The notes under the pieces were generated by a model that saw nothing but the letters and a program-made list of their open reading frames with translations, did no database searches and had not been told where the DNA came from. The position numbers and the translations under genes are program-made. Positions 24,520 through 40,583 of a DNA stretch of 55,888 nucleotides are shown here, piece after piece (within the stretch, counting starts at the first letter, position 1; each line of letters starts with the position of its first letter). Source of the DNA: Minisyncoccota bacterium (GTDB taxonomy: Bacteria > Patescibacteriota > Minisyncoccia > Phycocordibacterales > UBA9973); the NCBI GenBank assembly GCA_017991895.1, contig JAGOPR010000003.1, forward strand, positions 1 to 55,888, in the 5' to 3' direction.

Positions 24520-24540
24520 AATGGCCAATTAACGAAGTTT

Positions 24541-24570
24541 TAAAGCGCGGATACCCGCGCTTTAATTTTT
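24541..24570 (+). terminator. Intrinsic terminator
   Basis: AAAGCGCGG-ATAC-CCGCGCTTT followed by AATTTTT. Confidence 0.65.
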
Positions 24571-24650: not shown

Positions 24651-24678
24651 TTGACACAGTCTCAAAATCTGATAGTAT
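24651..24678 (+). promoter_or_regulatory. Candidate tuf-S10 operon restart promoter
   Basis: TTGACA-N16-TAGTAT with AATCTGaTAGTAT, the same -10 context as at 34210 and 40256. It is followed by a leader of about 195 nt. Confidence 0.55.
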
Positions 24679-24874
24679 CTTACCCGATAGCTCTCCCCAG
24701 GGCTTTTTTCGTGCCCGAGGGAGACTTTCACTAGAGCTAGTGGCCGTGGCAGAGGACTGGTTTTGTGTCTTCCGCCAGTGCCGCAAACTCAATATTATTA
24801 GTTTTTAATTTAAGCATTTAGTTTCGGGTTAAAGCTATAAGCTAAAACCTATAAGCTATAAGCTAGATAAACAT

Positions 24875-26074
24875 ATGGCAGAGGAATTTAATCGTTCAAA
24901 GCCGCACGTTAACGTTGGTACTATCGGACACGTTGACCACGGCAAAACTACGCTCACAGCAGCGATCCTTACAGTTCTTAACCGTGAGGGAAATGGGTAT
25001 AGTTCAAAGATGAAGGGTGTTGATCAGATTGACAATGCTCCAGAAGAAAAGGCTCGTGGAATCACGATCGCTCTTTCTCACAACGAGTACGAGACTCCAA
25101 ATCGTCACTACGCTCACATTGATGCTCCAGGTCACGCTGACTACATCAAAAACATGATTACTGGTGCTGCTCAAATGGACGGCGCTATTATCGTTGTTGC
25201 AGCTACTGACGGTGTTATGCCACAGACTCGTGAGCACATCCTCCTTGCAAAACAGGTTGGAGTGCCAAAGATTATCGTGTTCCTCAACAAGTGCGACATG
25301 GTTGATGACAAGGATCTTATCGACATGGTTGAAGAAGAAGTTCGTGAACTCCTTACAAAACAAGGTTTTGACGGTGCAGGATGCCCTGTTATCCGTGGTT
25401 CAGGACTCAAAGCTCTTGAATCAGCAGACAACTCTGACGAATGGGCAAAGAAAGTTATCGAGCTCGTAAACGCACTCGATACTTACATCCCTATGCCAGA
25501 GCGTGATCTTGCTAAGCCATTCCTTATGCCAGTTGAAGACATCTTCTCTATCGAAGGACGCGGAACTGTTGTTACAGGCCGTATCGAACGTGGAGTTGTT
25601 AAGGTTGGCGAAGATATCGAAATCGTTGGTATCAAGGACACTGCAAAGACAACAGTTACAGGTATCGAAATGTTTAACAAAAACCTCAAGGAAGGTATGG
25701 CTGGAGACAACGCTGGTATCCTTCTTCGTGGTACAAAGAAAGAAGACATTACACGTGGACAGGTTCTTGCGAAAGTTGGAACAGTTACTCCTCACTCTTC
25801 ATTCGAATGTCAGGTTTACATCTTGAAGAAAGAAGAAGGTGGACGCCACACTCCATTCTTTAAAGGTTACAAGCCACAGTTTTACATTCGTACAACTGAC
25901 GTTACAGGTGATGTAACACTTCCAGAAGGAAAGGAAATGGTTATGCCTGGAGATACAGTAGATCTTAAAGTAAGTCTCGTTACTCCGGTCGCCCTCGAGG
26001 CACAACAGCGTTTTGCTATCCGTGAAGGAGGTAAGACCGTTGGTGCAGGAGTTGTCACTAAGATAATCGCTTAA
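24875..26074 (+). CDS. tuf: Elongation factor Tu
   Basis: [29 protein letters not shown], 399 aa. Confidence 0.98.
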
Positions 26075-26077
26075 CCC

Positions 26078-26155
26078 AGTAAGTAATTAGTAGATAGTAG
26101 TTAGTAGAAGATGCAAATGCACTAGCTACTAACTACTTACTACTATCTACTAACT
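26078..26155. repeat. Inverted pair of 7-nt tandem arrays (TAGTAG-type / CTACTAA-type) in the tuf-rpsJ spacer
   Basis: The left arm is AGTAAGTAATTAGTAGATAGTAGTTAGTAG. The right arm is CTACTAA CTACTTA CTACTAT CTACTAA. Confidence 0.85.
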
Positions 26156-26162
26156 TCCCCAT

Positions 26163-26543
26163 ATGGCCGAAACAAAAATAACAACAAAAAAGCCACGAGT
26201 AGCTAAGACAAAAACAGCTTCTGCTGAAAAGTCTGGTGAAGTGCGTCTTCGAATCCGCGTACGAGCATACGAGAACAAAATTCTTGATAACTCTGTAAAG
26301 CAGATTATGGATACAGCGCTCCGTCATGATGCCACAATCCTTGGTCCAACACCGCTTCCAACTGAAATCAAAAAATACACGGTCAACCGTTCTCCGTTTA
26401 TCTATAAGAATACCCGTGAACAATTTGAAATTCGAGTACACAAGCGCGTGATTGATATCCTAAATCCAGGCGCGAAAACAATTGAAGCTCTCACAAATCT
26501 TTCTCTCCCTTCTGGTGTAGAAATTGACGTTAAGATGCTCTAA
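26163..26543 (+). CDS. rpsJ: 30S ribosomal protein S10, with a ~25-aa basic N-terminal extension
   Basis: [25 protein letters not shown]...GPTPLPT. Confidence 0.95.
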
Positions 26544-26596
26544 AGAAAGATTACTATTCATGAACGAACGCATATGCGTTCGGTCCACTGAAATTT

Positions 26597-27211
26597 ATGA
26601 AATTTATACTAGGTACAAAACAGAACATGACAGAGTACTTTTCCGAAGACGGAAAAGTACATCCTGCAACGATCGTTACTGCAGGCCCTATCGTTGTCAC
26701 TCAGGTGAAGACGAAAGAAACTGACGGCTATACAGCTCTTCAGGTAGGCTACGGAACACGAAAGGCTAAGAACATTACAAAATCAGTAAAGGGACACATG
26801 GGCGAAGGCTCATATGCAGAACTTTGCGAGTTTGTAGTATCTGCTGAACAAGCAGGAGGAATGAAAAAAGGCGACGCTATCACTGCAGGCACATTTGCTG
26901 TCGGTGACGAGGTTGCGGTTTCAGGAATCTCAAAAGCAAAAGGTTTCCAAGGTGTTATCAAACGTCACAACTTCAAAGGAGGTCCACGTTCCCACGGTCA
27001 GAAACACTCTGAACGTGCACCGGGATCAATCGGTGGAGGTCTTCGTAATCGTGTTCCAAAAGGAATGCGCATGGGAGGACGTACTGGCGGTGATCGCATA
27101 ACTGTAAGCAATCTTAAAATCCTCGCTGTCGACGCGGATACAAACACACTTCTCATCTCCGGAGCTGTCCCAGGACGCCGAGGAACGATGCTTGAAATCG
27201 TACAAAAGTAA
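26597..27211 (+). CDS. rplC: 50S ribosomal protein L3
   Basis: ILGTKQNMTEYF...GISKAKGFQGVIKRHNFKGGPRSHG. Confidence 0.95.
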   Translation: MKFILGTKQNMTEYFSEDGKVHPATIVTAGPIVVTQVKTKETDGYTALQVGYGTRKAKNITKSVKGHMGEGSYAELCEFVVSAEQAGGMKKGDAITAGTFAVGDEVAVSGISKAKGFQGVIKRHNFKGGPRSHGQKHSERAPGSIGGGLRNRVPKGMRMGGRTGGDRITVSNLKILAVDADTNTLLISGAVPGRRGTMLEIVQK

Positions 27212-27214
27212 TAT

Positions 27215-27889
27215 ATGGAAAATACAATATATACAAAAAAAGGTGCGAAGGGTGGTTCTATCAAGTTACCTGAAAAGGTTTTCGGAGTTTCTTGGAATGG
27301 AGACCTTGTTCACCAAGTTCTTCATGCCATTACTGCGAACACTCGTGCTGGAACTGCGGACACAAAAGGACGTAGTGAAGTGCGTGGAGGAGGTAAGAAG
27401 CCTTGGAAACAGAAAGGTACTGGACGCGCTCGTCATGGATCATCTCGCTCTCCGATCTGGAAAGGTGGAGGTGTTACTCACGGACCTCTTGCAGAAAAGA
27501 ATTACAAGCAGAAAGTAAACAAGAAGATGGCTGGTAAAGCTCTCGCGACTGCTCTTTCAGCAAAACTCCGAGATGGAGAAATTCTTTTTGTTGAAGCTCT
27601 AGGATTCAAAGCTCCAAAGACAAGCGAAGCAGCAGAAATGGTACAGGCATTTGCAGGTATCAAAGGTTTTGAGAAGCTTGCAAAGGCACGAAAGCCAAAA
27701 GCAATGCTTGTTATTCCTTCTGTTGATAAAGCATTGTCTCAGAGTTTCCGCAACGTGCCACAGATTTCAATCTCACTTGCGAAAGATTTGAACACTTTTG
27801 ACGTTCTAAATCATCAGTATGTTATTTTTGCTGGCCCCGAGGCTTCTGTCGACGCACTCGTTAAACGCTGTGTCGTATCAAAGAAGTAA
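27215..27889 (+). CDS. rplD: 50S ribosomal protein L4
   Basis: KGRSEVRGGGKKPWKQKGTGRARHGS. Confidence 0.95.
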   Translation: MENTIYTKKGAKGGSIKLPEKVFGVSWNGDLVHQVLHAITANTRAGTADTKGRSEVRGGGKKPWKQKGTGRARHGSSRSPIWKGGGVTHGPLAEKNYKQKVNKKMAGKALATALSAKLRDGEILFVEALGFKAPKTSEAAEMVQAFAGIKGFEKLAKARKPKAMLVIPSVDKALSQSFRNVPQISISLAKDLNTFDVLNHQYVIFAGPEASVDALVKRCVVSKK

Positions 27890-27892
27890 TCT

Positions 27893-28183
27893 ATGAACAA
27901 AGCCCCAGGAGTAATTCTCAAAAATCCAAGAATCACTGAAAAAGCTTCTATTGTTGCAGAAAAAAATGCTTATACATTTGATGTTATGGCAAGCGCAACA
28001 AAGAAAGAAATCGAACAGGCAGTAAAGACTTTGTATAAGGTCACTCCAGTTCGCATCCGTACACTTTCTATCCCAAACAAGTCTACAAATCCTCGCGGAC
28101 GTAAAGGTAAGCCAGGTATGAGTGGAGGAGGAAAGAAAGCATACGTTTATTTGAAAAAGGGCGATAAGATCGAAGTCCTGTAG
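27893..28183 (+). CDS. rplW: 50S ribosomal protein L23
   Basis: ILKNPRITEKASI...YTFDVMASATKKEIEQAVKTLY. Confidence 0.93.
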   Translation: MNKAPGVILKNPRITEKASIVAEKNAYTFDVMASATKKEIEQAVKTLYKVTPVRIRTLSIPNKSTNPRGRKGKPGMSGGGKKAYVYLKKGDKIEVL

Positions 28184-28220
28184 TAAGTTAAAAACTTAAA
28201 TCTACGAAATCTATACCTAT

Positions 28221-29063
28221 ATGAAAACCTACAAACCTACATCAAAATCCCGTCGTCACATGACTAATGTTATGTACCGTGGAGTGCTTACCCACACTGA
28301 ACCGCACAAAGCGCTTACGAGTGGTCTCAAGCGCGACATGGGTCGCAATAACCTCGGACGCATTACTGTGCGCCACAAGGGGGGAGGAAACAAGAAGCTC
28401 TATCGTGAGGTTGACTTCATGTTTGAAAAGAAAAATATTCCAGCAAAAGTAGTATCAGTTGAATACGATCCTTTCCGAACATCATTCATCTCACTAGTTG
28501 CATACAAGGATGGAGAGAAGCGATATATGCTTACTCCAAAATCAGTACGCCCAGGTGCTACATTTACAGTATCTACTGATGCTCCACTTGTTACTCCAAA
28601 CCGACTTCCACTTACAAAGATTCCAGTTGGTACTTTTGTTTACAATATTGAACTCAAGCCAGAAGGAGGCGCGAAGCTTGTCCGCTCAGCGGGTAACTTT
28701 GCACAGGTTGTGGCGAATGACGGAGGATATACACTTATAAAACTCCCATCATCTGAAGTTCGAAAAGTTTCTGAAAAATGCTGGGCAACAATTGGTGAAG
28801 TCTCAAACGACGAACATCACCTTGTAAACGTTGGAAAGGCAGGACGTTCTCGTCACAAAGGTATTCGCCCAACAGTTCGTGGTACTGCCATGAACCCTGT
28901 TGACCACCCATACGGTGGAGGTGAAGGCCGACAAGGACGTGGAACACGACGACCGAAGACAATGTGGGGTAAGGTTACCGGAGGTCGTAAGACTCGAGGT
29001 CCGAAGAAATATTCAAACCACCTTATAATTTCTCGCCGAGTAGTCAGTAAGAAAAACAAGTAA
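28221..29063 (+). CDS. rplB: 50S ribosomal protein L2
   Basis: RHKGGGNKKLYR, GNFAQVVA, and MNPVDHPYGGGEGR. Confidence 0.97.
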   Translation: MKTYKPTSKSRRHMTNVMYRGVLTHTEPHKALTSGLKRDMGRNNLGRITVRHKGGGNKKLYREVDFMFEKKNIPAKVVSVEYDPFRTSFISLVAYKDGEKRYMLTPKSVRPGATFTVSTDAPLVTPNRLPLTKIPVGTFVYNIELKPEGGAKLVRSAGNFAQVVANDGGYTLIKLPSSEVRKVSEKCWATIGEVSNDEHHLVNVGKAGRSRHKGIRPTVRGTAMNPVDHPYGGGEGRQGRGTRRPKTMWGKVTGGRKTRGPKKYSNHLIISRRVVSKKNK

Positions 29064-29093
29064 CACCTGAACACTTAAACAAGAAACACATAC

Positions 29094-29125
29094 AAAAAGC
29101 CCCGCGCTAATGCGCGGGGCTTTTT
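29094..29125 (+). terminator. Intrinsic terminator after rplB
   Basis: AAAAAGCCCCGCGC-TAAT-GCGCGGGGCTTTTT. The stem is identical to the terminator after rplE. Confidence 0.85.
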
Positions 29126-29132
29126 GTATGGC

Positions 29133-29160
29133 TTGACATACTTTTGTCGTTTGATATGGT
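29133..29160 (+). promoter_or_regulatory. Candidate promoter (TTGACA-N16-TATGGT)
   Basis: The -10 ends 6 nt before the ATG at 29167. Confidence 0.5.
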
Positions 29161-29166
29161 AGGAGT

Positions 29167-29241
29167 ATGTTCGCACAGAAAAACATTGTAGTCGCTCTAA
29201 TTATCATCCTTAAAAAAGGAGGGGCTACTTTTGTTGCATAA
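29167..29241 (+). CDS. Possible leaderless 24-aa hydrophobic peptide
   Basis: MFAQKNIVVALIIILKKGGATFVA, read by hand. It is bracketed by a promoter and the terminator at 29263-29299. Confidence 0.2.
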   Translation: MFAQKNIVVALIIILKKGGATFVA

Positions 29242-29262
29242 CCACGTATAAAAATAAACAGC

Positions 29263-29299
29263 AAAAAGAAAACCCTCCCCGCGGAGGGTTTTCTTTTTG
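29263..29299 (+). terminator. Intrinsic terminator
   Basis: AAAAAGAAAACCCTCC-CCGC-GGAGGGTTTTCTTTTT. Confidence 0.7.
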
Positions 29300-29509
29300 T
29301 AAAAAATTCTAAAAAACTCGTTTTCGAGCCAGTGCGTCTGGGGAGTCTAGAAACCCCAGACGCGGTGGTCCGAAAAAGAGACCACTGTAGCAAAAACGCT
29401 ATATCGACTAGGCACAGGTGCCAAATCGACGCGGAGCAATGGTAAGCTCGTCTCAAAAAATTCCAAGAGTTCATTAACAAATTCATAACACATCAAAAAA
29501 CTAGACGAG

Positions 29510-29845
29510 ATGTTTAAGAAATTATTTTACGAAAATAACAAATGGACAGCACTTGATTGTCCTCCAAAAGATAGTAAGCGGGATGGTTACGTAACTGTAT
29601 GGAAATTTAAGAATGACTGTATGAGTGCACCAAATCTTTGGCTAAGCCGCATGTGTCAGAAAATACGAGATAAGTACGGGCATGATATTGATAAACACGA
29701 GCTAATGGCTATGACTTTAGATCTTATGAAATTAGAATGTGTTTATGCCGACATCAATTTTTATTTTGAGGATGATGGATTTGTAATCGGCATAGGCGAA
29801 ATAGCAGAGGAAAAATTATTTCACGTGAGCGCAACTCACATCTAA
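29510..29845 (+). CDS. Hypothetical 111-aa protein
   Basis: ORF only. No family recognised. Confidence 0.5.
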   Translation: MFKKLFYENNKWTALDCPPKDSKRDGYVTVWKFKNDCMSAPNLWLSRMCQKIRDKYGHDIDKHELMAMTLDLMKLECVYADINFYFEDDGFVIGIGEIAEEKLFHVSATHI

Positions 29846-29861
29846 AATCAACGTTCAGATT

Positions 29862-30326
29862 ATGAGAAATGCCACTGATAAGGAGCTCGTTTTGAAGTAC
29901 CTAAGTATGAACGAGCAAGAGTTGCTTACGGAGTATATTTTGCGCCATGATGGGTCAACATTTGCTGTTTGTCGGACAGAAAATTGGGAATTCCGTACAC
30001 ACGATGAATTTTTAGATCTTAGACAAAAAATCACAAAGGATAACTTGGTCTGCCCATTTGAGGACCCGATAGATTATACAGGACTGTCGCTTTATGGTTT
30101 TAATGGATTGATACACCGAGCTAGTTATTCTTCTGACAATTTATTTTCGATCAATTTTCTTTTCGCGTACAGTAAACACCATAAGTTATTCCAGCAACTT
30201 GCGTTTGACTATGACAAATTACTCGTGGGCGATCTAACCCTAGTTTTTGTTGAGCCCAGAAGTATATATTGGAAAGAAACTAAAATAACTGGCGATGTGC
30301 ACTATACTAAAAGTTTTAAATATTAG
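29862..30326 (+). CDS. Hypothetical 154-aa protein
   Basis: ORF only, 16 nt after the previous gene. No family recognised. Confidence 0.5.
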   Translation: MRNATDKELVLKYLSMNEQELLTEYILRHDGSTFAVCRTENWEFRTHDEFLDLRQKITKDNLVCPFEDPIDYTGLSLYGFNGLIHRASYSSDNLFSINFLFAYSKHHKLFQQLAFDYDKLLVGDLTLVFVEPRSIYWKETKITGDVHYTKSFKY

Positions 30327-30336
30327 AATAAAGCTA

Positions 30337-30370
30337 AACAGTCTGAACAAAATGTTCAGCTGTTTTCTTT
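30337..30370 (+). terminator. Intrinsic terminator
   Basis: AACAGtCTGAACA-AAA-TGTTCAGCTGTT followed by TTCTTTTTATTT. Confidence 0.6.
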
Positions 30371-30398
30371 TTATTTCCTCGTGATACACTTTGCTTAT

Positions 30399-30788
30399 AT
30401 GAAACCCGAAGAAACAAAAAAATTTAGCTTGCACAAAAGAGTTAAGAGCACCAATCATGGCCTGCGGGGAATAGGCGTAATGTTTCGCCACGGTCACAAT
30501 GCGTGGCTGTTTATTTTCTTCGCCCTCGTTCCTTTGTATCTCGGTTTTAAGCTCTGTATTTCTACAACAGAGTGGCTAGTGCTCATACTTACTTTCATTG
30601 TTGTTATGGCACTTGAGGCAGTAAATACGGCCATGGAAATTCATATGGACCTCACGAGCCCTGACGAGCACCCGCATGCTCGCGATACGAAAGACGTTGC
30701 CGCTGGAGCAGTACTTATAGCAGTATTTTTTGGAGGTATTATCGGTATGATAATTTTTATACCTAAGGTTTTAAGTCTTTTCTCCTAA
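30399..30788 (+). CDS. dgkA: Diacylglycerol/undecaprenol kinase (prokaryotic DgkA family)
   Basis: LEAVNTAMEIHMDL...HPHARDTKDVAAGAVLIAVF and 3 TM helices. The ATG at 30399 is preferred over the GTG at 30381. Confidence 0.8.
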   Translation: MKPEETKKFSLHKRVKSTNHGLRGIGVMFRHGHNAWLFIFFALVPLYLGFKLCISTTEWLVLILTFIVVMALEAVNTAMEIHMDLTSPDEHPHARDTKDVAAGAVLIAVFFGGIIGMIIFIPKVLSLFS

Positions 30789-30812
30789 TAAGTAAGTTGG
30801 TTTATCCCCCAA

Positions 30813-30840
30813 TTGGCTAAAAATATTGGCATGCTATGAT
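30813..30840 (+). promoter_or_regulatory. Candidate promoter (TTGGCT-N16-TATGAT, extended TGC) 8 nt before the ATG
   Basis: Seen directly upstream of 30849. Confidence 0.45.
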
Positions 30841-30848
30841 AGCTGTCC

Positions 30849-31688
30849 ATGACCCCGCTAGCAATCATTACATTCCGCGAATTCTTTGAAGCGTGGCTTA
30901 TAGTTGGCCTATTTATAGGTATCGCAAAGAGTTTAAATCTCGGTCGCGGGCGGGATATGCTTAAAGCTGTTTTGCTAGGAATGGTTATCGCCATAATTAT
31001 TCCATCGGTTGTTTTCCTTGCGGGAGATAGCTTGCAGAGAATCTGGACTGAAGAAAAAGTGGAGTTGACCGAGGGAGTATTGATGATTGTGGCGTCTCTA
31101 ATGATAGGCATTGTTAGCCTATATTTGCATAAATTTTTCTCAGTAAAACGGCAAGCAGTAATCAAACAAGCAACTGAAAAATTGCAGACAAATGTATTCG
31201 ACAGAGCACTTTTTACTATTATTGTTATTTCAATTGTAAGAGAAGGACTTGAGATTGGACTTTTTGCACTATCTATTTCTCTTGTAACTCCAGTTAAGAC
31301 GCTTTTTTTAGGGCTTGGAGTAGGTTTCGCCGTAGCCTCGGTTGTTGGGATTTTTGCGATGCTGGCATACAAGCGACTACCGATTAAAAAAATATATGCA
31401 GTCACGGAGATAGGGATACTTTTTGTCGGGGCGGCACTTTTCAAAAATGGTATTTCAGAAATACTTGAAGTAATCTGGCACATTGATACATCAAAAATTT
31501 TACCGCTACCACTTTCATTTATGCCAAGTCATGAAAGCCTCCTCGGACATTTTTTGAATACAATTTTTGGTATCGAGAGAGAATTTAGTTTAGCAAAGTT
31601 ATTGCTTATTACTTTGTACTTTGGCGCTGTATATTATTTTGTTTTCCATAGAGCAAAACAAAAACAGATTGCTTCTGCTACTGCTTAG
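30849..31688 (+). CDS. FTR1/EfeU-family iron permease
   Basis: Two REXXE motifs in TM helices (FREFFEAW and IVREGLEIGLF). Multi-TM. Confidence 0.8.
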   Translation: MTPLAIITFREFFEAWLIVGLFIGIAKSLNLGRGRDMLKAVLLGMVIAIIIPSVVFLAGDSLQRIWTEEKVELTEGVLMIVASLMIGIVSLYLHKFFSVKRQAVIKQATEKLQTNVFDRALFTIIVISIVREGLEIGLFALSISLVTPVKTLFLGLGVGFAVASVVGIFAMLAYKRLPIKKIYAVTEIGILFVGAALFKNGISEILEVIWHIDTSKILPLPLSFMPSHESLLGHFLNTIFGIEREFSLAKLLLITLYFGAVYYFVFHRAKQKQIASATA

Positions 31689-34113
31689 CCTTTTTCACAT
31701 ATTTTTTGAACTCGTTTCCTTTTTCTTCAAAATTTTTCCACACAGAGTAACTAGGTGAGGCAGTTGAGAGGAGGCAGATGCTTCCTCTTGGAGTGTTTTT
31801 GTAGGCGAATGCGACAGCCTGTTTCATACTTCTTGTTTCTAGAATATTGAGACCTTTTTTATTTTTCAGCATACGACTTCCACTCGTAGGGAAAAGCACG
31901 ATATTTTTTATTTTATATTTTCGGACAGTTTTTTCTAGATCAGTAAAATCATATCCACGGTCTTCTCCACCGAGAAAGAGCGTGCCGATATTTTTTAATG
32001 TCTTTATAGCAGCGATTGCAGACTGCGGAGTCGTTGAAATCGCATCATCATAAAAAGTGATGCCATTATGTGTTCCAATCAGTTCAAGTCGGTGTGGAAG
32101 AGGTCTAAAATTTTTGATTGCCTTCGCGATTGCACTATCTTTTATTCCGAGTGCGCGGGCGACGGCAACTGACGCACGAATATTCATCTTGTTGTGTTCG
32201 CCTAAGAGCGGAATTTCTTTAGTTGGAATCTTTGCAGTAAACGGCGGAAGGATTTTTATGTCACCAGCTTTTTGATATTTAAAAATATTCATCTTTGCCT
32301 CGTAGTAAGCAGGGAGACTGGTGTGGTAGTTCATATGCTCCGGAAAGAGGTTGATAAGTAAGGATATATTTGGAGAATACTCGATGTCGTCGAGCATGTA
32401 ACTCGAGAGTTCAATTACGAATACCTCTTTTTTATCAATTTTTCTGAGTAGGGCTTCAAGCATTGGATTACCAATGTTACCGAGGAGGCGAACTTTTTTT
32501 CCACCAGCTTTTAGCATTTCATACACGAGTGTCGTTGTTGTACTTTTGCCTTTGGTCCCAGTGATTCCTACGGTAAGGTTTTTGTTTTGAGAGAAAAAGA
32601 CATTTGTCGCCGTCGTATATGCTCCAGTAACTTTTTCTTTGGGAATTCCGGGGGTTTTAATTATTAGGTCAAAATTCTTTTGCTTTGCGAGATAGTTCTT
32701 ATCGCGGTCTTCATCAAGGATGCCAATTTTGAGTTTTGGGTAGAACTTTTTCAGATATTTTTCGGTAACCTTACCTTCTCTTCGGTAGCCGAGTATTCCT
32801 ACGGTTTCAATTCCGAGGAACTTAAATGGTGTTGGCAGAGTAGGGGCATGAGTAGTTTGCATAACTGTTTCTATTAGAGTTTCAGGATTTTTTATTTTTT
32901 TGAGATATTTCTTTGTAACAATATCGCTCTTGTACGAATTTGCGGAAAGATAAAGTGAGGCACGGGATTCTTCAAATGTTCCTACGCATTCAAACGGTTT
33001 CATCGAGCCGAAGCCGAGAATGTCGCCAAAGAGCGGAATAAGACTTTCATCCGCCAGCAGATTTTTACCGAATATTTTAACGAGTTCAGTTTTTGGAATA
33101 AATGGAGAGAGTATTAAAAAGACGAACGCACATTTTGGACATTCTCCACACCAAAGAGTGTCGGGTCGATCTTTGAAAACTTTGAAATTTCGATTACAAC
33201 TCGAGAATGTCTCAAAGTATTTTGGATATCTTGAAAAAAGTTTGGCAACACGGATTTCGTAGAATTGACGAAGAAGTGAAAAGTATTGTATGTCAGTTGT
33301 AATATTTCCACGTGTGTATTCTTGGAGCATCGCTTCAAACTCAGCTGACTTGCTCCACTGGTGGTTTATAGTTTCTCCTTTATATTCAGCATTTCCAAAG
33401 TTACTTGAGTGCTCGTTGCCAACAACCACATACTTATATCCGTAGAGAGCCGATGAAAGGAGACCTGTAAAAGCGAAGATAGCAGAAATTGGAATGTGTC
33501 CATTGTACGCGCCAGCGTGTTCCTCGAATATCTGTGGGTCGAGAATACGCCTTATTTTAAGGCTTGGATTTCCAATGATATCTATAACTTGCTCTGCTAT
33601 CGGGTCTCCCTTCTGTGTCTCCAAGAGGTAAGACGCTACATCGAAGTCCCTGAGGAGCTCTGTTGCGACGATAGAATCTTTTCCTCCGCCGATGCCGAGA
33701 AGTATTTTTTCAGATGTGCTGACAGATACGGGTGAAGCTTTAACTTTTTTTGAAAAGGGAAACCTCGCAACTTTTTTAGGATCGAGATTATTTCGGTACA
33801 AAAATTCGCCAAGTCCTTTTCTATATACGGTATTCCAAAACTCCGCTTGTTTTTCTGAGAGGGGGAATGCAGTAGCAATTTTCGGAGGGCAATAAAGTTT
33901 GTAATAACTGATACCGAGAATGAGCGAAAGCGGATCGAGGAATTTTTCTAAGACTTCTGGCGAGATCTTACGCGGAGTTTTTGGCAATAAAATTGTTTCA
34001 CTAAAGGAGAGTGGCGCGCGATCAGAAAATTCGATTGAGTAATCGAAGGTGATTTTAAGGCAATCCGGTTCGTAGGTGTAGCCTTTGAAATTGAAGGCGG
34101 TGGCTTTGGACAT
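31678..34113 (-). CDS. murD: Fusion protein: N-terminal ~440-aa PP-loop-type domain (possible MurL-like epimerase) plus C-terminal UDP-N-acetylmuramoylalanine-glutamate ligase (MurD family)
   Basis: The C-terminal half has GITGTKGKSTTTTL, LSSYML, GEHNKMN and HRLE (Mur ligase motifs). The N-terminal half has LLGIGGGKDS (SGGxDS-like) and WCGECPKC. Confidence 0.8.
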   Translation of the reverse strand: MSKATAFNFKGYTYEPDCLKITFDYSIEFSDRAPLSFSETILLPKTPRKISPEVLEKFLDPLSLILGISYYKLYCPPKIATAFPLSEKQAEFWNTVYRKGLGEFLYRNNLDPKKVARFPFSKKVKASPVSVSTSEKILLGIGGGKDSIVATELLRDFDVASYLLETQKGDPIAEQVIDIIGNPSLKIRRILDPQIFEEHAGAYNGHIPISAIFAFTGLLSSALYGYKYVVVGNEHSSNFGNAEYKGETINHQWSKSAEFEAMLQEYTRGNITTDIQYFSLLRQFYEIRVAKLFSRYPKYFETFSSCNRNFKVFKDRPDTLWCGECPKCAFVFLILSPFIPKTELVKIFGKNLLADESLIPLFGDILGFGSMKPFECVGTFEESRASLYLSANSYKSDIVTKKYLKKIKNPETLIETVMQTTHAPTLPTPFKFLGIETVGILGYRREGKVTEKYLKKFYPKLKIGILDEDRDKNYLAKQKNFDLIIKTPGIPKEKVTGAYTTATNVFFSQNKNLTVGITGTKGKSTTTTLVYEMLKAGGKKVRLLGNIGNPMLEALLRKIDKKEVFVIELSSYMLDDIEYSPNISLLINLFPEHMNYHTSLPAYYEAKMNIFKYQKAGDIKILPPFTAKIPTKEIPLLGEHNKMNIRASVAVARALGIKDSAIAKAIKNFRPLPHRLELIGTHNGITFYDDAISTTPQSAIAAIKTLKNIGTLFLGGEDRGYDFTDLEKTVRKYKIKNIVLFPTSGSRMLKNKKGLNILETRSMKQAVAFAYKNTPRGSICLLSTASPSYSVWKNFEEKGNEFKKYVKKAKQ

Positions 34114-34209
34114 TACCTCTATACCTTACCCAAAAACCCCAAAATAGCCAAGAAAATAAGAATCTGGACTCCGGATCGAGTTCGGGACGACCTGCTCATG
34201 CGGGTCGAT

Positions 34210-34237
34210 TTGACTTATAAAAACAATCTGCTAGTAT
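34210..34237 (+). promoter_or_regulatory. Restart promoter for rpsS-...-rplE
   Basis: GGGTCGATTTGACT-N16-TAGTAT. About 45 nt is homologous to the promoter at 40243-40290. Confidence 0.6.
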
Positions 34238-34337
34238 GTCCCTTGCGTGGCTCTCTCAAGGGCTGTTTTTAATTCTAAAAATTAAACACGTAACAGTGGT
34301 TGCCAATTTAATGGCAGTTCCACCTCTAACGGATAAA

Positions 34338-34679
34338 ATGACACGATCACTCAAAAAAGGACCATACGTAGACGAACGCGTAATGAAGAAAGTCGTCGGA
34401 AAAAACCCAATGAATACAGGGGTTATTAAGACGTGGTCACGTGCTTGCCAAATCCCACCAGAATTCGTTGGGTTCGTTTTTGGCGTTCATAATGGCAATA
34501 AACACATCGAAGTCCTAGTTACTGAAGATATGGTAGGTCACCGTCTCGGAGAATTTTCACCTACACGAACATTCCGTAAGCACGGAGGTAAGATGCAGAA
34601 AGAAATCGAAGCTAAGGCTAAAGAGTCTGAAATCGCTGCTGCACAGGCTGCAAAATCAGCTCCAGCAGATAAGAAATAA
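34338..34679 (+). CDS. rpsS: 30S ribosomal protein S19, with a C-terminal Ala/Lys-rich extension
   Basis: [13 protein letters not shown]...[13 protein letters not shown]. The start at 34338 is set by homology; the track extension is the leader. Confidence 0.95.
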
Positions 34680-34690
34680 TTTTAAATACT

Positions 34691-35113
34691 ATGAAAGCTT
34701 CCCTCAAAAATTACAGACAAGCCCCTCGTAAAGTACGCCTAGTTGCGCACCTTTTGAAGGGTAAGAAGGTTGCTCAAGCTGAAATGGAGCTTAAACACCT
34801 TGCAAAGCGAGCATCTCTTCCTTTAGAGAAGCTTCTTGCTTCAGCTGTAGCAAATGCAAAAGTTGCTGGAGCGGATGTTGAAAACCTAATTGTCAAAAAT
34901 GTTCAAGTAAATCAGGGCCTTGTTATGAAGCGTATGATGCCTCGCGCCTTTGGTCGTGGAGCCCCAATCATGAAGAAAACATGCCATGTATTTATCGAGC
35001 TTGCTGAAGTTGGTGTTAAAAAGGAAGTAGTTGCAAAGAAAGAAAAAGTCGAAAAAACTGAGAAAAAGGAAAAGAAAGCTACTAAGCCTAAAGCAGTAAA
35101 AGCTAACAAATAA
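34691..35113 (+). CDS. rplV: 50S ribosomal protein L22, with a Lys-rich C-terminal tail
   Basis: YRQAPRKVRLVAHLLKGKKV...MPRAFGRGAPIMKKTCHV. Confidence 0.95.
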   Translation: MKASLKNYRQAPRKVRLVAHLLKGKKVAQAEMELKHLAKRASLPLEKLLASAVANAKVAGADVENLIVKNVQVNQGLVMKRMMPRAFGRGAPIMKKTCHVFIELAEVGVKKEVVAKKEKVEKTEKKEKKATKPKAVKANK

Positions 35114-35116
35114 TAT

Positions 35117-35791
35117 ATGAGTAAAGTTGTCCATCCATACGCACATCGCCTAGTAATCCTCCGAGACTGGAAATCTCGCTGGTTTGCTGCACCTAAGAAA
35201 TACAAGGAATATCTTCGTGGAGATGTACTTGTTCGCGACTACCTTGAAAAGCGTATGCGTGGTCTATATGTTTCATCTATTGAAATTGAGCGCTCACCAA
35301 AGTCTACTCGCGTTATCATCCGCACTTCACGCCCAGGTATGGTTATTGGACGCTCAGGTGAAGGATCAGTAAAACTCAAGAATGATATCGTGGCTTTCAT
35401 GAAGCGCAAAAACGTTACAGTATCAGAAGAACTTAAGCTCGACATCGTAGAAATCCAGAATCCTGATGCTGATGCACACATCGTTGCTTACTCTGTTGCT
35501 GAAGCTCTCGAAAAGCGTCTTCCATTCCGCCGTGTCATGAAGCAAGCTGTTGAGAAAGTTATCGCTACTCGTGGAGTAGAAGGAGTAAAGATTCTTCTTT
35601 CAGGACGTCTAGGTGGCGCTGAAATCGCTCGTATTGAAGAACAAAAGCGTGGCTCAATCCCTCTTCAGACTTTCCGAGCAGACGTTGATTACACACGTGA
35701 AAAAGCACACATGACTTACGGTGATATCGGAATCAAAGTGTGGATTTACCGTGGAGAAATATTTGAAACTAAGACCGCACCTACAAAATAA
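35117..35791 (+). CDS. rpsC: 30S ribosomal protein S3
   Basis: VHPYAHRL...GMVIGRSGEG...LSGRLGGAEIAR. Confidence 0.96.
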   Translation: MSKVVHPYAHRLVILRDWKSRWFAAPKKYKEYLRGDVLVRDYLEKRMRGLYVSSIEIERSPKSTRVIIRTSRPGMVIGRSGEGSVKLKNDIVAFMKRKNVTVSEELKLDIVEIQNPDADAHIVAYSVAEALEKRLPFRRVMKQAVEKVIATRGVEGVKILLSGRLGGAEIARIEEQKRGSIPLQTFRADVDYTREKAHMTYGDIGIKVWIYRGEIFETKTAPTK

Positions 35792-35820
35792 CTAATAGTT
35801 ACTAACTACTTACTAATCCC

Positions 35821-36237
35821 ATGTTATTCCCGAAAAAAATTAAATATCGAAAATGGCAAACTGGACGAAAGAACATGCTAAATTCCACACCTGATACTCG
35901 TGGAACAACTCTTTCATACGGATCATTTGGTCTCAAAGCAGAGACTGCTGGACGCATTCGTAGCAACCAGCTTGAGTCTGCACGTAAGGCTATGGCTCGC
36001 CAAATGACAAAGACTGCAAAGTTTTGGATTCGTATTTTCCCAGACCGACCATACACGGCTAAGCCACCAGAAGTGGGAATGGGTAAGGGTAAAGGTGATC
36101 CACAGGGATTTTGTTTTGAAATTCGCCCAGGACGCCTAATTTTCGAAATCGACGGACTCGACGAAAAGGTTGCCCGTGAAGCTCTTCGAAAAGCTGGTAC
36201 AAAATTGCCAGTTAAAACACGAGTTGTTGCGAGATAA
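35821..36237 (+). CDS. rplP: 50S ribosomal protein L16
   Basis: MLFPKKIKYRKWQTGR... Confidence 0.96.
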   Translation: MLFPKKIKYRKWQTGRKNMLNSTPDTRGTTLSYGSFGLKAETAGRIRSNQLESARKAMARQMTKTAKFWIRIFPDRPYTAKPPEVGMGKGKGDPQGFCFEIRPGRLIFEIDGLDEKVAREALRKAGTKLPVKTRVVAR

Positions 36238-36251
36238 CTGTAATCAATTAT

Positions 36252-36434
36252 ATGAAAAAGAAAGAAACAACAAACGTTACAGATATTGATGCAAAGCTCC
36301 TCGAGCTCCACGAAAAAGTTCGTGTGAACCGCTTTGCTCTTGCTGGAAGTCGTGCAAAAAATGTTAAAGCTACAAAGACACATCGTCGCGAGATCGCTCG
36401 TCTTATGACACAGAAGAATGCAACAAAGAAGTAA
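36252..36434 (+). CDS. rpmC: 50S ribosomal protein L29
   Basis: 60 aa at the conserved position between L16 and S17, with an L29-like helix-rich sequence. Confidence 0.88.
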   Translation: MKKKETTNVTDIDAKLLELHEKVRVNRFALAGSRAKNVKATKTHRREIARLMTQKNATKK

Positions 36435-36437
36435 TAT

Positions 36438-36719
36438 ATGGCAACTAAAACAACTACAAAGAAAACTAAAGAAGTCGCAACTCCTGTAAAGAACACTGTT
36501 CTTGCCGGCGTTGTTATGAAAACTGCGATGCAGAAGACGATTGTAGTCAAAGTTACTCGCTTTGAGAAGCACCCAAAATACAAAAAATACCAAACCTTTT
36601 CAAAGAAGTACAAGGTGCATGATGGGAATGCTGTTGCAAAAGTAGGAGACATGGTGGAAATCATGGAAACTCGCCCGATCTCAAAGGACAAGCATTTTAC
36701 TTTGGTCGTGAAGAAATAA
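36438..36719 (+). CDS. rpsQ: 30S ribosomal protein S17
   Basis: LAGVVMKTAMQKTIVVKVTRFEKHPKYKKY. Confidence 0.94.
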   Translation: MATKTTTKKTKEVATPVKNTVLAGVVMKTAMQKTIVVKVTRFEKHPKYKKYQTFSKKYKVHDGNAVAKVGDMVEIMETRPISKDKHFTLVVKK

Positions 36720-36737
36720 TTTTCGAATAAAAAATAT

Positions 36738-37115
36738 ATGATTCAACCACAAACAATAGTAAAAATAGCTGATAACGCCGGAGGTAAAATCGGACGCGTC
36801 TTCAAGGTTCTTGGTTCATCAAAGCGCCGATACGCTGAAATCGGAGACGTTGTGGTTATCTCAGTCCAGATTGCAGAACCTCGCAAGGGTGTTAAGAAGA
36901 AAGGTGTTCACCACGCAGTTGTTGTTCGCCAGCGTGAAGCTCTTCGAAGAAAAGACGGTTCTTACATATCTTTTGACGACAATGCTGTTGTACTTATAGG
37001 TAGTGGTAAACAACGCTTTGAACCTATCGCAGGACGTATCTTCGGACCGATTCCTCGTGAGCTCGGTGAACGTGGTTATCAGAAAATCATATCGTTAGCA
37101 CCAGAAGTGCTCTAA
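36738..37115 (+). CDS. rplN: 50S ribosomal protein L14
   Basis: MIQPQTIVKIADNAGGK... Confidence 0.96.
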   Translation: MIQPQTIVKIADNAGGKIGRVFKVLGSSKRRYAEIGDVVVISVQIAEPRKGVKKKGVHHAVVVRQREALRRKDGSYISFDDNAVVLIGSGKQRFEPIAGRIFGPIPRELGERGYQKIISLAPEVL

Positions 37116-37117
37116 TC

Positions 37118-37206
37118 AGAAAGTAGAAAATAGTAAGTAGAAAATAGGAGCCCAAATACAAACGCATTCACTACTAACTACTTTCTACTAACTACTAACT
37201 AATCAC
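37118..37206. repeat. Inverted pair of 7-8-nt tandem arrays in the rplN-rplX spacer
   Basis: Left arm AGAAAGTAGAAAATAGTAAGTAGAAAATAGG. Right arm CACTACTAACTACTTTCTACTAACTACTAACTAATCAC, ending at the rplX ATG. Confidence 0.85.
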
Positions 37207-37512
37207 ATGAACATCAAAAAAGGAGACATCGTAATAGTTCGCGTTGGAAAGGATAAGGGAAAGAAAGGGAAAGTCCTTGCTGTTTCTCCTAAGCTTGATT
37301 CTGTACTCGTTGAGGGTATGAATATGAAGAAGCGTCATATGAAGCCACGTGGACGTGACCAGAAAGGACAGACTATCGAAATTGCTCATCCTATAACACG
37401 TTCAAACGTTTCATTGGTTGATCCTAAAAAGGGGACTGCGACACGCTTGGGCTCAAAGACGGTAGCAGGAAAGAAGGTTCGAATCGCAAGAAAGAGCGGA
37501 CAAGAGATTTAA
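37207..37512 (+). CDS. rplX: 50S ribosomal protein L24
   Basis: IKKGDIVIVRVGKDKGKKGKV (KOW motif). Confidence 0.94.
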   Translation: MNIKKGDIVIVRVGKDKGKKGKVLAVSPKLDSVLVEGMNMKKRHMKPRGRDQKGQTIEIAHPITRSNVSLVDPKKGTATRLGSKTVAGKKVRIARKSGQEI

Positions 37513-37571
37513 GTTTTAATAAATAATACGGTATTAGGTGAATTTTAATTCGACCTAAATCCAAAAAATAT

Positions 37572-38144
37572 ATGGCACATCTCACGATTAAAGAAAAATC
37601 AGCAAAAGCATATGAAGTCTTGAAGCCAAAATTTGGCTACAAGAACATAATGGCCTCACCACGACTTATGAAGGTTGTTATCTCCTCAGGTACGGGAGGT
37701 GCAATGAAGCGTGATGCAAAGCGCAACGATCTTGTCGCTGACCGACTCGCTAAAATTACTGGACAGAAGCCATCTCTCAAGGGAGCTAAGCAATCTATCG
37801 CATCATTCAAGATTCGTCAGGGTGATCCTGTTGGAATCACGACTACTCTTCGTGGTCCTCGTATGTACGGATTTTTAGAAAAGTTTTTTAATATATCTGT
37901 CCCACGTATCAAAGACTTCCGTGGTTTTAATTCAAGTAGTGTTGACTCTATCGGAAACATTACACTTGGTCTTAAAGAGCACGTTATCTTCCCAGAAACA
38001 GCCGATGAAGATATCAAAGATGTTTTTGGTCTTGCTGTAACTATTGTTTCATCTGCAAAAACAAAGGAAGAAGGAATTGCCTTTTTTGAATATCTCGGAG
38101 TTCCATTCAAAAAAGAAGAGGAAACAGCTAAGAAAAAACGCTAA
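37572..38144 (+). CDS. rplE: 50S ribosomal protein L5
   Basis: PRLMKVVISSGTG...RGPRMYGFLEKF...DFRGF. Confidence 0.96.
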   Translation: MAHLTIKEKSAKAYEVLKPKFGYKNIMASPRLMKVVISSGTGGAMKRDAKRNDLVADRLAKITGQKPSLKGAKQSIASFKIRQGDPVGITTTLRGPRMYGFLEKFFNISVPRIKDFRGFNSSSVDSIGNITLGLKEHVIFPETADEDIKDVFGLAVTIVSSAKTKEEGIAFFEYLGVPFKKEEETAKKKR

Positions 38145-38156
38145 ACTTCAGATTTC

Positions 38157-38187
38157 AAAAAGCCCCGCGCCATGGCGCGGGGCTTTT
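38157..38187 (+). terminator. Intrinsic terminator after rplE
   Basis: AAAAAGCCCCGCGC-CATG-GCGCGGGGCTTTT, the same stem as at 29094-29125. Confidence 0.85.
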
Positions 38188-38218
38188 GTTTTATTTTATG
38201 CTATTCTCATCAATACAT

Positions 38219-38812: not shown

Positions 38813-38814
38813 AA

Positions 38815-39561: not shown

Positions 39562-39566
39562 AAAAT

Positions 39567-39615: not shown

Positions 39616-40071
39616 TTACTCCTCTTTACTTTCCTTTTCCCACTCGAGATAGCGTATCGTTACAATTTCAGTTGGGTACATCGGAACGTACGCAGATACT
39701 TTATCGTAGCAATTTCTTGAGTAGCCCAACATTGTAATAGTTAGGGTTGACTGTGATGCGCCGGTAATAAAAAGCACTGCATCGCAACCATTAGATATGG
39801 CATCATTTTCAAGTGCTCTGAACTCATCTTCTGCAGTGTCAAAATCAGGAACTTTCATCCAGTTTTCAGGCATCTGTTTCAGATAAATTCTTTCAAAAGT
39901 GGAAAACGGTTGAACTAGTTCTTCCGCTATCGGGTCATTCACGCAATAAACAATCATCATTTTCTTATAATATGTAGTGTCCATCAAAATTCTTTTGATT
40001 GTTTTGGCATTTTTTGCGAGGTCTTCTTTTCTACCACGCGAAAGGACAAATAATAGATTAAACTTTCTCAT
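39616..40071 (-). CDS. Hypothetical 151-aa protein
   Basis: The start MRKFNLLFVL at 40071 is preferred. The longer track ORF reads through an 18-bp inverted repeat at 40098-40145, which is probably 5' UTR. Confidence 0.5.
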   Translation of the reverse strand: MRKFNLLFVLSRGRKEDLAKNAKTIKRILMDTTYYKKMMIVYCVNDPIAEELVQPFSTFERIYLKQMPENWMKVPDFDTAEDEFRALENDAISNGCDAVLFITGASQSTLTITMLGYSRNCYDKVSAYVPMYPTEIVTIRYLEWEKESKEE

Positions 40072-40175
40072 GTTTTTATGCCGCCTGTGAATCATTTTAT
40101 GGCGAATTTTGGCCCTGTAATATAGGAGGGGCAAAATTCGCCATAGAATAAGGCTTTTTCAACGAAAATCACTAT

Positions 40176-40204: not shown

Positions 40205-40255
40205 TAATCTAGACGCCATATCAACTATGGAGAGATATTCTGACGGGTGTCGATT

Positions 40256-40283
40256 TGACATTAGTTTTCAATCTGCTAGTATA
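40256..40283 (+). promoter_or_regulatory. Restart promoter for rpsZ-...-secY
   Basis: GGGTGTCGATTTGACA-N16-TAGTAT, homologous to 34198-34240. Confidence 0.6.
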
Positions 40284-40397
40284 GCTCCCGAGGCAGTTTA
40301 GCAGTCACTGGTCCACTTTTCTCCTTTAATTTCCTACTCTGTAGGGGGATAAAGAAAAAAAGTGAGATACCGGACAGCGAGCCTCTAATTTTTACTT

Positions 40398-40583
40398 ATG
40401 GCAAAGACATCAACCAAACATCGAGCAACACGTACCCCAAAGTTTAGTACACGGGCTAAAAACCGTTGTTTTAAATGTGGTCGCGGACGTGGCTTTATGC
40501 GAGATTTTGGCCTATGTCGTATCTGTTTCCGCGAACTAGCCAACGAGGGAATGATCCCAGGTGTTCGTAAATCATCTTGGTAA
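40398..40583 (+). CDS. rpsN: 30S ribosomal protein S14, zinc-binding type Z
   Basis: 61 aa with [23 protein letters not shown] (CxxC...CxxC). Confidence 0.95.

Follow-up and report, generated by a model that had tools for sequence, protein, structure and literature searches.

The DNA considered here, positions 1 to 55,888 of contig JAGOPR010000003.1 (assembly GCA_017991895.1, a Minisyncoccota bacterium) and called the window in what follows, has a G+C content of 41% and carries on its + strand a supercluster of translation genes that is twice interrupted by genes of other kinds. From upstream to downstream the genes are rpsL, rpsG, fusA, three small open reading frames (ORFs), tuf, rpsJ, rplC, rplD, rplW and rplB, then 5,274 bp of other genes, then rpsS, rplV, rpsC, rplP, rpmC, rpsQ, rplN, rplX and rplE, then 2,253 bp of other genes, and finally rpsZ, rpsH, rplF, rplR, rpsE, rplO, secY and adk; the gene map shows no L30 gene in the rpsE-rplO interval of the window, an absence typical of the Candidate Phyla Radiation. 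S3 homologues of 72-73% identity bear the names Candidatus Pacebacteria and Nomurabacteria in their sources, which puts the organism among the Patescibacteria of the Paceibacteria type. A preliminary description of the window had proposed that the rplB/rpsS and rplE/rpsZ interruptions are bounded by the same reused insulator modules, a terminator where each opens and a promoter where each closes, and that they might have arisen by cassette capture or by duplication of boundary elements. Our comparison with related loci leads to a different account, i.e., that the ribosomal cluster is, very probably, a series of separately promoted units between which unrelated genes come and go, an ordinary process in an unusual place.

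The relatives compared were 80 metagenome loci chosen by the similarity of their ribosomal protein S3 (63-92% identity), and 13 further loci centred on six near homologues of this protein (86-91% identity); individual loci are given by labels of the form L049, and their kinship was gauged by S3 identity and not by a tree. The limits of the larger gap, 29064-34337, follow from the rplB stop at 29063 and the rpsS ATG at 34338, so that the separation of some 5.3 kb and the end coordinate given in the preliminary description were right. That ATG is supported by the S19 domain, which begins at residue 37 of the longer ORF, and by rpsS of the relatives, which begins ATGACA or ATGGCA in agreement with the 34338 start. 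For rpsZ, PF00253 is annotated on the orthologue of L140. A 157-aa ORF on the - strand (29013-29486), which is annotated as a gene on the independent contig L001, was dismissed as spurious, since it overlaps the 3' end of rplB and both terminators.

The promoters predicted before rpsS and rpsZ both read TCGATTTGAC-N9-CAATCTGCTAGTAT, with nine unrelated bases in the middle, and as TTGACT-16-TAGTAT and TTGACA-16-TAGTAT, each with a TG, they conform to sigma-70 promoters of the extended -10 type. The preliminary description had thus been correct that both are present and alike, with coordinates that were a few bases off, but they are not confined to the two insertions: a third of the same class stands before tuf, behind a third terminator and a small cargo region. 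The class common to the units can be written (A)TTTGAC-N14-TG(C/A)TAGTAT, and within the 56-kb window TTGAC...TGnTAGTAT occurs only before tuf, rpsS and rpsZ, the other strong promoters having TGCTATAAT or TGCTATTAT. The motif sought in the relatives was TTGAC-N13-17-T[GA]nTAnn[AT]T, for rpsS within 330 nt upstream, and its background is 5.5% per 330 nt. Of 81 ribosomal-unit promoters in these relatives, 47 have TAGTAT as the -10; in the 25 other motif matches TAGTAT does not rank among the top eight -10 hexamers.

The rpsS promoter motif was found in 49 of the 59 relatives with enough sequence (against the 5.5% background), and the other ten have near-variants of it. It was there in all 11 loci in which rplB and rpsS are separated by only 72-122 bp and no cargo. 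In ten of these the gap is made up of the promoter, whose -35 begins 1-12 nt past the rplB stop, and a short leader, and there is no terminator; in the remaining one, L055 (122 bp), the promoter comes directly behind a terminator. The rpsZ promoter motif was found in 16 of 22 relatives overall and in 8 of 8 where the gap is at most 201 bp (24-201 bp), in which case it lies directly behind rplE or overlaps its end (the latter in L070), and the tuf promoter motif in 14 of 22. Orthology was also detectable by blastn, for P_rpsZ and its leader in L049 and L051 and for the P_tuf leader in L051 and L052. Because the promoters are present in relatives with short gaps and no cargo, they are not the ends of cassettes; they are evidently the native, orthologous promoters of the three ribosomal units and older than the cargo, and they would be alike as members of the clade's ribosomal-protein promoter class, not as parts of an insertion.

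Each of these promoters is followed by a structured leader. Those of tuf and rpsS open with a short hairpin and U tract (34247-34271 in the latter), a feature of 27 of 52 rpsS promoters versus 1 of 25 other promoter matches. The tuf leader (24679-24874, z-score -4.3), which opens with GAUAGCUCUCCCCAGG(G)CU followed by U-rich sequence, is kept in L051, L052, L131 and L133, and the rpsS leader begins with a similar hairpin. The 115-nt rpsZ leader (40283-40397) has orthologues in L049, L051, L055, L058, L062, L072, L128 and L131; its long stem has compensatory changes at 5 of 15 pairs among nine relatives, and the conserved words ..UCCGYUUUUCUCCUU.. and ..AAGAA-AAAARCGNGAUA.. pair together, making this leader a candidate autoregulatory site for a ribosomal protein. 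In Rfam only the transfer-messenger RNA (tmRNA) passed the gathering threshold in the whole window, and an E-value scan of 24000-41000 had no match that came close to threshold in the leaders of tuf, rpsS or rpsZ.

What lies between the units is a mosaic. The cargo forms at least five transcription units, not one: the micro-ORF, dgkA and the FTR1 gene and, in the other gap, the 172-aa ORF have promoter-like sites of their own, as does each cargo gene or gene pair, and there are internal terminators, with the MurL-MurD gene on the opposite strand (Table 1). Across the relatives the rplB/rpsS gap varies from 72 bp to 5.9 kb and the rplE/rpsZ gap from 24 bp to 4.2 kb. A few residents recur. The dgkA gene lies between rplB and rpsS in relatives of 68-92% S3 identity, including 10 of 10 near-relative loci that cover the gap (six S3 proteins, 86-91% identity), in which the remaining cargo differs, and a nucleotide kinase (cytidylate-, guanylate- or adenylate-type) with truB occupies rplE/rpsZ in L049, L051, L128, L131-L134, L137 and L140. 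By this distribution dgkA at the first junction and the kinase and truB at the second appear to be old residents. Among the 82 ORFs in the gaps of relatives nearly all were singletons and only dgkA, cmk and truB matched the window's cargo; Pfam assignments gave ordinary chromosomal genes, e.g., pyrF, pyrD, phosphoribosyltransferases, a glycosyltransferase, an Asp/Glu racemase, a class IV aminotransferase, peptidases (including a dipeptidase), a MacAB-like ABC exporter, kinases and toxin-antitoxin pairs.

That this turnover is rapid was apparent from L131 and L132, which have identical S3 and flanks that are 96.8-99.8% identical, yet differ in a swapped segment of 1.4 kb versus 3.7 kb that extends from the dgkA stop to just before the next shared gene. 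No recombinase, integrase or transposase was found among the proteins of the window's cargo and its neighbours, nor in the scanned cargo and Pfam tables of the relatives, and a repeat search of 28900-40500 turned up no target-site duplications or terminal inverted repeats at the islands, apart from the hairpins and promoter-like words. The anatomy of the sequence, its conservation, the variability of the cargo and the lack of mobility genes are all direct observations. In one group (L069, L078, L080, L083, L086, L089, L092 and L112) rplE is followed directly by adk-map without the rpsZ...secY genes and, since adk-map there adjoins rplE, the rpsZ-secY unit has moved away.

Table 1. Predicted and annotated features of the window around the rplB/rpsS and rplE/rpsZ gaps.
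Feature	Position	Strand	Description
Terminator of fusA/tuf region	24540..24565	+	closes the small fusA/tuf cargo region; hairpin and T tract
P_tuf	24651..24678	+	third predicted promoter of the same class; TTGACA-16-TGATAGTAT; sequence GGTTTGACACAGTCTCAAAATCTGATAGTAT
rplB	28221..29063	+	end of the tuf-rpsJ-rplCDWB unit; Pfam L2 N and C domains
T1	29089..29130	+	predicted intrinsic terminator behind rplB; arms AAAAAGCCCCGCGC, loop TAAT; hairpin and T tract
Micro-gene	29133..29299	+	promoter 29133-29160; 24-codon ORF 29167-29241; terminator 29262-29299
Hairpin RNA element	29317..29380	+	64 nt; UUUUCG...GGUCCGAAAAA base and GGUCCGAAAAA 3' end conserved
Two ORFs of no assigned family	29510-29845, 29862-30326	+	111 aa and 154 aa (ORF111, ORF154); also on independent contig L001
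dgkA	30381..30788	+	diacylglycerol/undecaprenol kinase family; PF01219, E 1e-26; likely start ATG 30399
FTR1/EfeU-family iron permease	30849..31688	+	promoter-like site 30813-30840
MurL-MurD fusion	31678..34113	-	NF041275, E 1e-107, residues 4-409; TIGR01087, 258.7 bits (cutoff 211.95)
P_rpsS and leader	34210..34337	+	predicted; -35 34210-34215; TGC and TAGTAT 34229-34237 (-10 34232-34237)
rpsS	34338..34679	+	opens the rpsS...rplE unit; Pfam S19; start set by comparison with relatives
rplE	37572..38144	+	closes the rpsS...rplE unit; tblastn orthologues in relatives; gene-map position
T2	38157..38188	+	predicted intrinsic terminator behind rplE; arms as T1, loop CATG
Archaeal-type (d)CMP kinase	from 38186, likely start 38219, end 38812	+	rplE/rpsZ gap
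TruB-like pseudouridine synthase	38869-39561	+	rplE/rpsZ gap
172-aa ORF of no assigned family	39616..40134	-	lineage-specific; own predicted promoter 40204-40176
P_rpsZ and leader	40255..40397	+	predicted; -35 40255-40260; TGC and TAGTAT 40274-40282 (-10 40277-40282)
rpsZ (S14)	40398..40583	+	opens the rpsZ...secY unit; tblastn 66-97% identity to relatives

These observations fit together if the str-S10-spc cluster of this Paceibacteria-like lineage is a chain of units, tuf to rplB, rpsS to rplE, and rpsZ to secY, each starting with an ancestral promoter of one class and a leader of its own. The stretch from a stop codon to the next promoter would tolerate extra DNA, so that genes could accumulate there and be exchanged. 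The early settlers would have been dgkA at rplB/rpsS and the nucleotide kinase and truB at rplE/rpsZ; the micro-gene, the two ORFs, the FTR1 gene, MurL-MurD and the 172-aa ORF, with promoters of their own, would be later additions or swaps made lineage by lineage. We infer that transcription does terminate and initiate at these junctions and that there is a selective reason for it: the terminator would prevent the strong transcription of the ribosomal genes from entering the cargo, and the promoter already there would start it anew for the next ribosomal unit. To this extent the insulator idea of the preliminary description survives, as the terminator-then-promoter layout is there in relatives whenever cargo is present, but the data do not support a design made by capturing cassettes or by duplicating boundary modules. 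The comparison reveals no new mechanism of gene capture.

Several points weigh against so simple an account. The P_rpsS and P_rpsZ regions are alike over about 100 nt, beyond the consensus core (upstream of the -35, p = 0.015), and a chain of units does not by itself account for the sharing of 14-nt arms by the terminators behind rplB and rplE, discussed below. Moreover, the promoters are called ancestral from the breadth of their distribution, in loci whose kinship was judged by S3 identity, and both promoters and terminators are predictions from sequence and conservation only. On the first of these points, the local alignment of the two promoter regions, at about two-thirds identity, had a score that none of 2,000 shuffles reached and includes identical blocks of 14 nt and 10 nt. 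The identity is mostly at consensus positions that are also found in the tuf promoter and the orthologues, the spacers agree at 2 of 9 bases, which is chance level, and there is no relation between the leaders (p = 0.58). The likeness could go back to an ancient duplication of a promoter region, but the data do not need it.

The terminators T1 and T2 both have the GC-rich stem-loop and U/T tract behind a stop codon that are expected of intrinsic (Rho-independent) terminators. T1 is a perfect 19-bp hairpin (core 29094-29125; -37.5 kcal/mol, z-score -10.4) that is followed by TTTTTGTATGG, and T2 has 13 pairs (-25.7 kcal/mol, z-score -4.4) and is followed by GTTTTATTTT. The claim that the same stem opens both insertions was borne out, with arms that are identical over exactly 14 nt and loops that differ, and the likeness ends at the hairpin, as the flanks are unrelated and the loops agree at one of four positions. 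At up to two mismatches, AAAAAGCCCCGCGC has six sites in the window, four of them the arms of T1 and T2, where 0.28 would be expected by chance, and the 56 kb hold no exact copy of the arm elsewhere. Cargo-bearing relatives likewise have a strong hairpin of A tract, GC stem and T tract behind rplB and rplE, with stems that vary among genomes and between the two sites of one genome. In a survey of 81 sequences (762 kb, 92 hairpin sites) T1 and T2 were the only pair within a sequence to share a stem, and a later scan of the 13 near-relative loci revealed no such pair. If only the 80 hairpin sites with a GC core of at least 7 nt are considered, a random pair shares seven loop-proximal bases in about 0.2% of cases, and the part common to T1 and T2 is nine GC bases plus the A and T tracts.

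Closer relatives put T1 in perspective. In L137-L139 (87% S3 identity), AAAAAGCCCCGCGC-AAC-GCGCGGGGCTTTTT lies directly behind rplB, i.e., the arms of T1 around another loop, of 3 nt, and L133 has a one-base variant of the hairpin, with the same ATAC/GTAT outer flanks, behind its micro-gene. Because L137-L139 keep the arms with loop AAC, T1 is an old, conserved terminator, with loops changing faster than arms, and the notion that different loops mean unrelated hairpins was dropped for the same reason. The rplE terminators of these relatives are all unlike T2, which is peculiar to the lineage of the window; only this genome has the arms of T1 behind rplE. Further afield, the exact hairpin (13-nt arms with any 4-nt loop, a pattern that leaves the 3-nt-loop form of L137 outside) was found once each in 46 GTDB species-representative genomes from many phyla (among them Elusimicrobia, Planctomycetota, Proteobacteria and Saccharibacteria); none of the 46 had it in a ribosomal-protein context and none had two copies. 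These single matches, scattered over unrelated phyla and contexts, show that such a hairpin is able to evolve more than once. The sub-threshold Rfam matches at the hairpins were only to the terminator portions of the Leu and Thr leader models.

Two explanations of the shared arms deserve about equal weight, and each is held tentatively. T2 may be a paralogous copy of T1, made by ectopic gene conversion, by a short duplication in a rearrangement or by a small repeated palindromic element, the loops having since diverged. The exact retention of the T1 arms around another loop in L137-L139 shows that a loop can change and leave the arms intact, the L133 variant marks a third slot, and two further points speak for a copy: no relative scanned shares a stem within its locus, and the exact 26-base hairpin occurs only once in each of the 46 GTDB representatives. 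Those same 46 genomes cut the other way as well: that the hairpin arose independently in many phyla, in no case near ribosomal-protein genes, suits the alternative that T1 and T2 converged, or coincide, with strong selection on both having picked their stems from a limited repertoire of stable GC stems. So does the end of their likeness at the hairpin, with the unrelated flanks and the loops that match at one position in four being awkward for copying, as is the count of just two hairpins in 56 kb. In addition, the stems of this clade use a small vocabulary of C-runs and GCG (CGCGCCC, GGCGCCC, CCCGCC etc.), so that its terminators are alike in composition and a coincidence is likelier. Convergence in turn has to contend with the rarity of agreement between random stems (about 0.2% for seven bases, when T1 and T2 share nine GC bases and both tracts), and with T1 and T2 being the sole such pair in the sequence surveyed.

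Palindromes that double as terminators are well known, e.g., paired DNA-uptake sequences of Neisseria, and REP and Correia elements, which reach hundreds to thousands of copies per genome. T1, T2 and the L133 variant resemble them in having identical or near-identical arms with different loops or flanks at separate sites, but differ in that only two such hairpins occur in 56 kb. Palindromic inserts of another kind were noticed just upstream of ribosomal-unit promoters, with (T)TTGAC on both sides: in the window (24580-24655; TTTGAC-CCTGTAGTGAATTTT...AAGATCTACTACGGGG-TTTGAC), L064 (1128-1207), L084 (about 6588), L069 and L140 (7890-7990, a different palindrome). The arrangement suggests that a small element entered at the -35 hexamer and duplicated its target. 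It is conceivable, though improbable, that the AAAAAGCCCCGCGC hairpin and the TTGAC-flanked palindrome are tiny mobile regulatory elements that create or insulate unit boundaries in Patescibacteria; the grounds for this are the hairpin behind rplB in two lineages, behind rplE here and as a variant in L133, and the palindrome in the window, L064, L084 and L140. If true, such copied elements would help explain the ribosomal cluster as a chain of units with gaps that accept genes.

The reading that both islands are captured cassettes, with terminator and promoter ends copied from one insulator pair by a common mechanism, is very unlikely to be right. The identical arms of T1 and T2 and the identical 14-nt and 10-nt blocks in the promoter alignment are what made it attractive. 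However, the supposition that the boundary modules are specific to insertions failed, as the promoter is the clade's general ribosomal-protein promoter, at the same sites in relatives free of cargo and a third time at tuf, and the spacers and leaders of the two promoters do not bear out a common origin. In relatives, dgkA, the kinase and truB occupy these same gaps and the terminators before them have other stems, and the two terminators of one such genome never share a stem. The cargo itself is a mix of an old core and lineage-specific genes, and nothing about it suggests a known vehicle: integrons and other recombinase-driven cassettes would bring a recombinase, which was not found, and the repeated ends here are a terminator and a promoter, which occur in the absence of cargo too; for a transposon, insertion sequence or miniature inverted-repeat element there were no terminal inverted repeats, target duplication or transposase. 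That the contig is an assembly chimera at rplB/rpsS and rplE/rpsZ has a negligible chance of being true, because the independent assembly L001 has the identical sequence from tuf through rplB into ORF111, and dgkA, the kinase and truB occupy the same gaps in many relatives from other samples.

Separately promoted units with intervening genes have precedents of several kinds. Chromosomal hot spots gain and lose genes between conserved core genes, and the gaps here are similar in having conserved flanks and a content that varies among close strains, toxin-antitoxin pairs included; they differ in that the flanks are ribosomal-protein genes, and the islands are small (0.3-6 kb), those of the window having no tRNA gene, integrase or phage remnant. 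The S10, spc and alpha operons of the E. coli type each have their own promoter and an autoregulatory leader, with L4 acting at the S10 leader and S8 in spc. The units described here are likewise separately promoted with a structured leader before each, but their boundaries are elsewhere, the leaders match no Rfam family, and one -10, TAGTAT, is found in all three promoters. The distribution of ribosomal-protein leaders has been reviewed (PMC3616713).

The closest parallel is the invasion and separation of joined translation operons described for Gammaproteobacteria and Bacilli (Brandis 2021, PMC8046335), in which 65% of 115 rearrangements split the cluster between operons and spare the operons themselves, and in which duplication and transposon-directed recombination were invoked (PMC8046335). 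Both of its stages can be recognized here. In the window and its relatives, inserts of less than 10 kb (islands of 0.3-5.9 kb) lie between intact, collinear ribosomal units, and the relatives with rplE-adk-map represent the later separation, of the rpsZ unit. There are also differences, as rplB/rpsS and rplE/rpsZ lie inside what in E. coli and Bacillus are the S10 and spc operons, and the junctions of this clade coincide with conserved internal promoters, i.e., the boundaries of the units have shifted. One promoter class is common to all units, turnover is seen between contigs with identical S3, and no transposons were seen.

The ribosomal-protein block is deemed the most stable piece of the chromosome, and serves for phylogeny and for checks of Patescibacteria metagenome bins. 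In one large group of Patescibacteria it would consist of at least three promoted units and gaps with up to about 6 kb of variable genes, a layout that matters for annotation, synteny-based binning and operon prediction. For a phylum whose transcription signals are little known, the comparison also provides a sequence-defined promoter class, TTGAC-N14-TGnTAGTAT, together with candidate regulatory leaders.

The individual cargo genes have features of their own. The preliminary list of them was correct and could be refined, as the MurD fusion is a MurL-MurD fusion and the micropeptide and the structured RNA are conserved in relatives. The micro-gene looks leaderless, its ATG being about 7 nt past the -10, and has 23-24 codons and a strong terminator of its own; it is always within the rplB/rpsS gap (starts at L052 6283, L131 7157 and L133 7397), and the peptides are MFAQKNIVVALIIILKKGGATFVA (window), MFAQNNNMVVVSIIPSIGGTTFVV (L052), MFIKSNNIVVVIISSLGGSTFVA (L131) and MFAQNTIISTLIIIRSARGFAFIV (L133). 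A role as an Ile/Val-sensing attenuator had been considered on the grounds of the hydrophobic, Ile/Val-rich peptide, the class IV aminotransferase downstream in L131 and the match of GGAGGG in the ORF with CCCTCC in the terminator. It was rejected as unsupported, since the terminator, of 17-18 bp in the window, stayed intact in all constrained folds of the four orthologues, and the downstream genes are unrelated among genomes. The hairpin RNA element behind it (fold z-score -6.6 for 29300-29445) has relatives at L049 ~4975-5035 and L052 ~6430-6490, with compensatory stem changes in both, and a similar hairpin at L133 ~7525-7580; the genes downstream are unrelated, and no Rfam family corresponds to the 64-nt hairpin. 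ORF111 and ORF154 have no Pfam or NCBIfam family and no tblastn match in the fetched relatives, and the idea that they are fragments of the larger genes behind the same hairpin in L049 and L052 fell for want of any similarity.

The MurL-MurD fusion, which also has matches to MurD structures in the PDB, is of interest as the MurD2/MurL pathway is described in a review as restricted to a few genera of Proteobacteria and Actinobacteria, with two separate genes (PMC8788868); a fused MurL-MurD in Patescibacteria would extend that range. Genes for D-glutamate supply vary in this gap, the window having MurL-MurD, L051 (7279-8187, - strand) and L137-L139 (L137 5463-6293, - strand) an Asp/Glu racemase, and L131 (7396-8433) a class IV aminotransferase that could be of the D-amino-acid or the branched-chain type. 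The pattern suggests that non-homologous genes have replaced one another at this site. At the ends of the rplE/rpsZ island (38183-38205 and 40178-40200) there are inward-facing similar promoter-like words, TTTTATGCTATT (23 nt, 83% complementary), the left one of which is conserved in L049 and L051; their likeness is that of a shared extended -10 consensus and not of terminal repeats.

Other junctions are variable too. In fusA/tuf the window has its three small ORFs, of no assigned family (23354-24519), L133 a Gp49/HTH (HigB/HigA-like) pair and a 132-aa ORF (1637-2677), and L134 84-aa and 298-aa ORFs (248-1542). The rpsJ/rplC junction is expanded by 1.1-4.3 kb in L086, L087, L089, L096, L102 and L112 (63-66% S3 identity); L086, L089, L102 and L112 keep rplB/rpsS at about 73-89 bp, and in L087 and L096 that gap measures about 1-1.2 kb. 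The expanded junction varies with the lineage. The 236-bp secY/adk gap of the window contains (44455-44645) a terminator, AAAAAACCTCCATAAAATGGAGGTTTTTT, and a 21-nt inverted repeat, ACACAAAAGAACAGTCGCCG / CGGCGACTGTTCTTTTGTGT, around some 140 nt, and in L128 and L130 this gap holds a RelB/YafQ toxin-antitoxin pair. In the adk-map interval (45251-46668) are a gene of the amino-acid-kinase family, probably pyrH-like, that is there in relatives too, and a 195-aa ORF.

Within the units, a 35-nt G-poor repeat, TAACTAnTnnnTACTAACTACTnACTAATCnCATG (83% identical), lies directly upstream of the starts of rplP (35789-35823) and rplX (37175-37209), and CTA/TAG-rich tracts precede tuf (24826-24870) and occur in the leaders of relatives; both may be translation-initiation regions that lack a Shine-Dalgarno sequence. 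The tmRNA gene, the one Rfam family over threshold, is at 54512-54913 and was not reported by ARAGORN.

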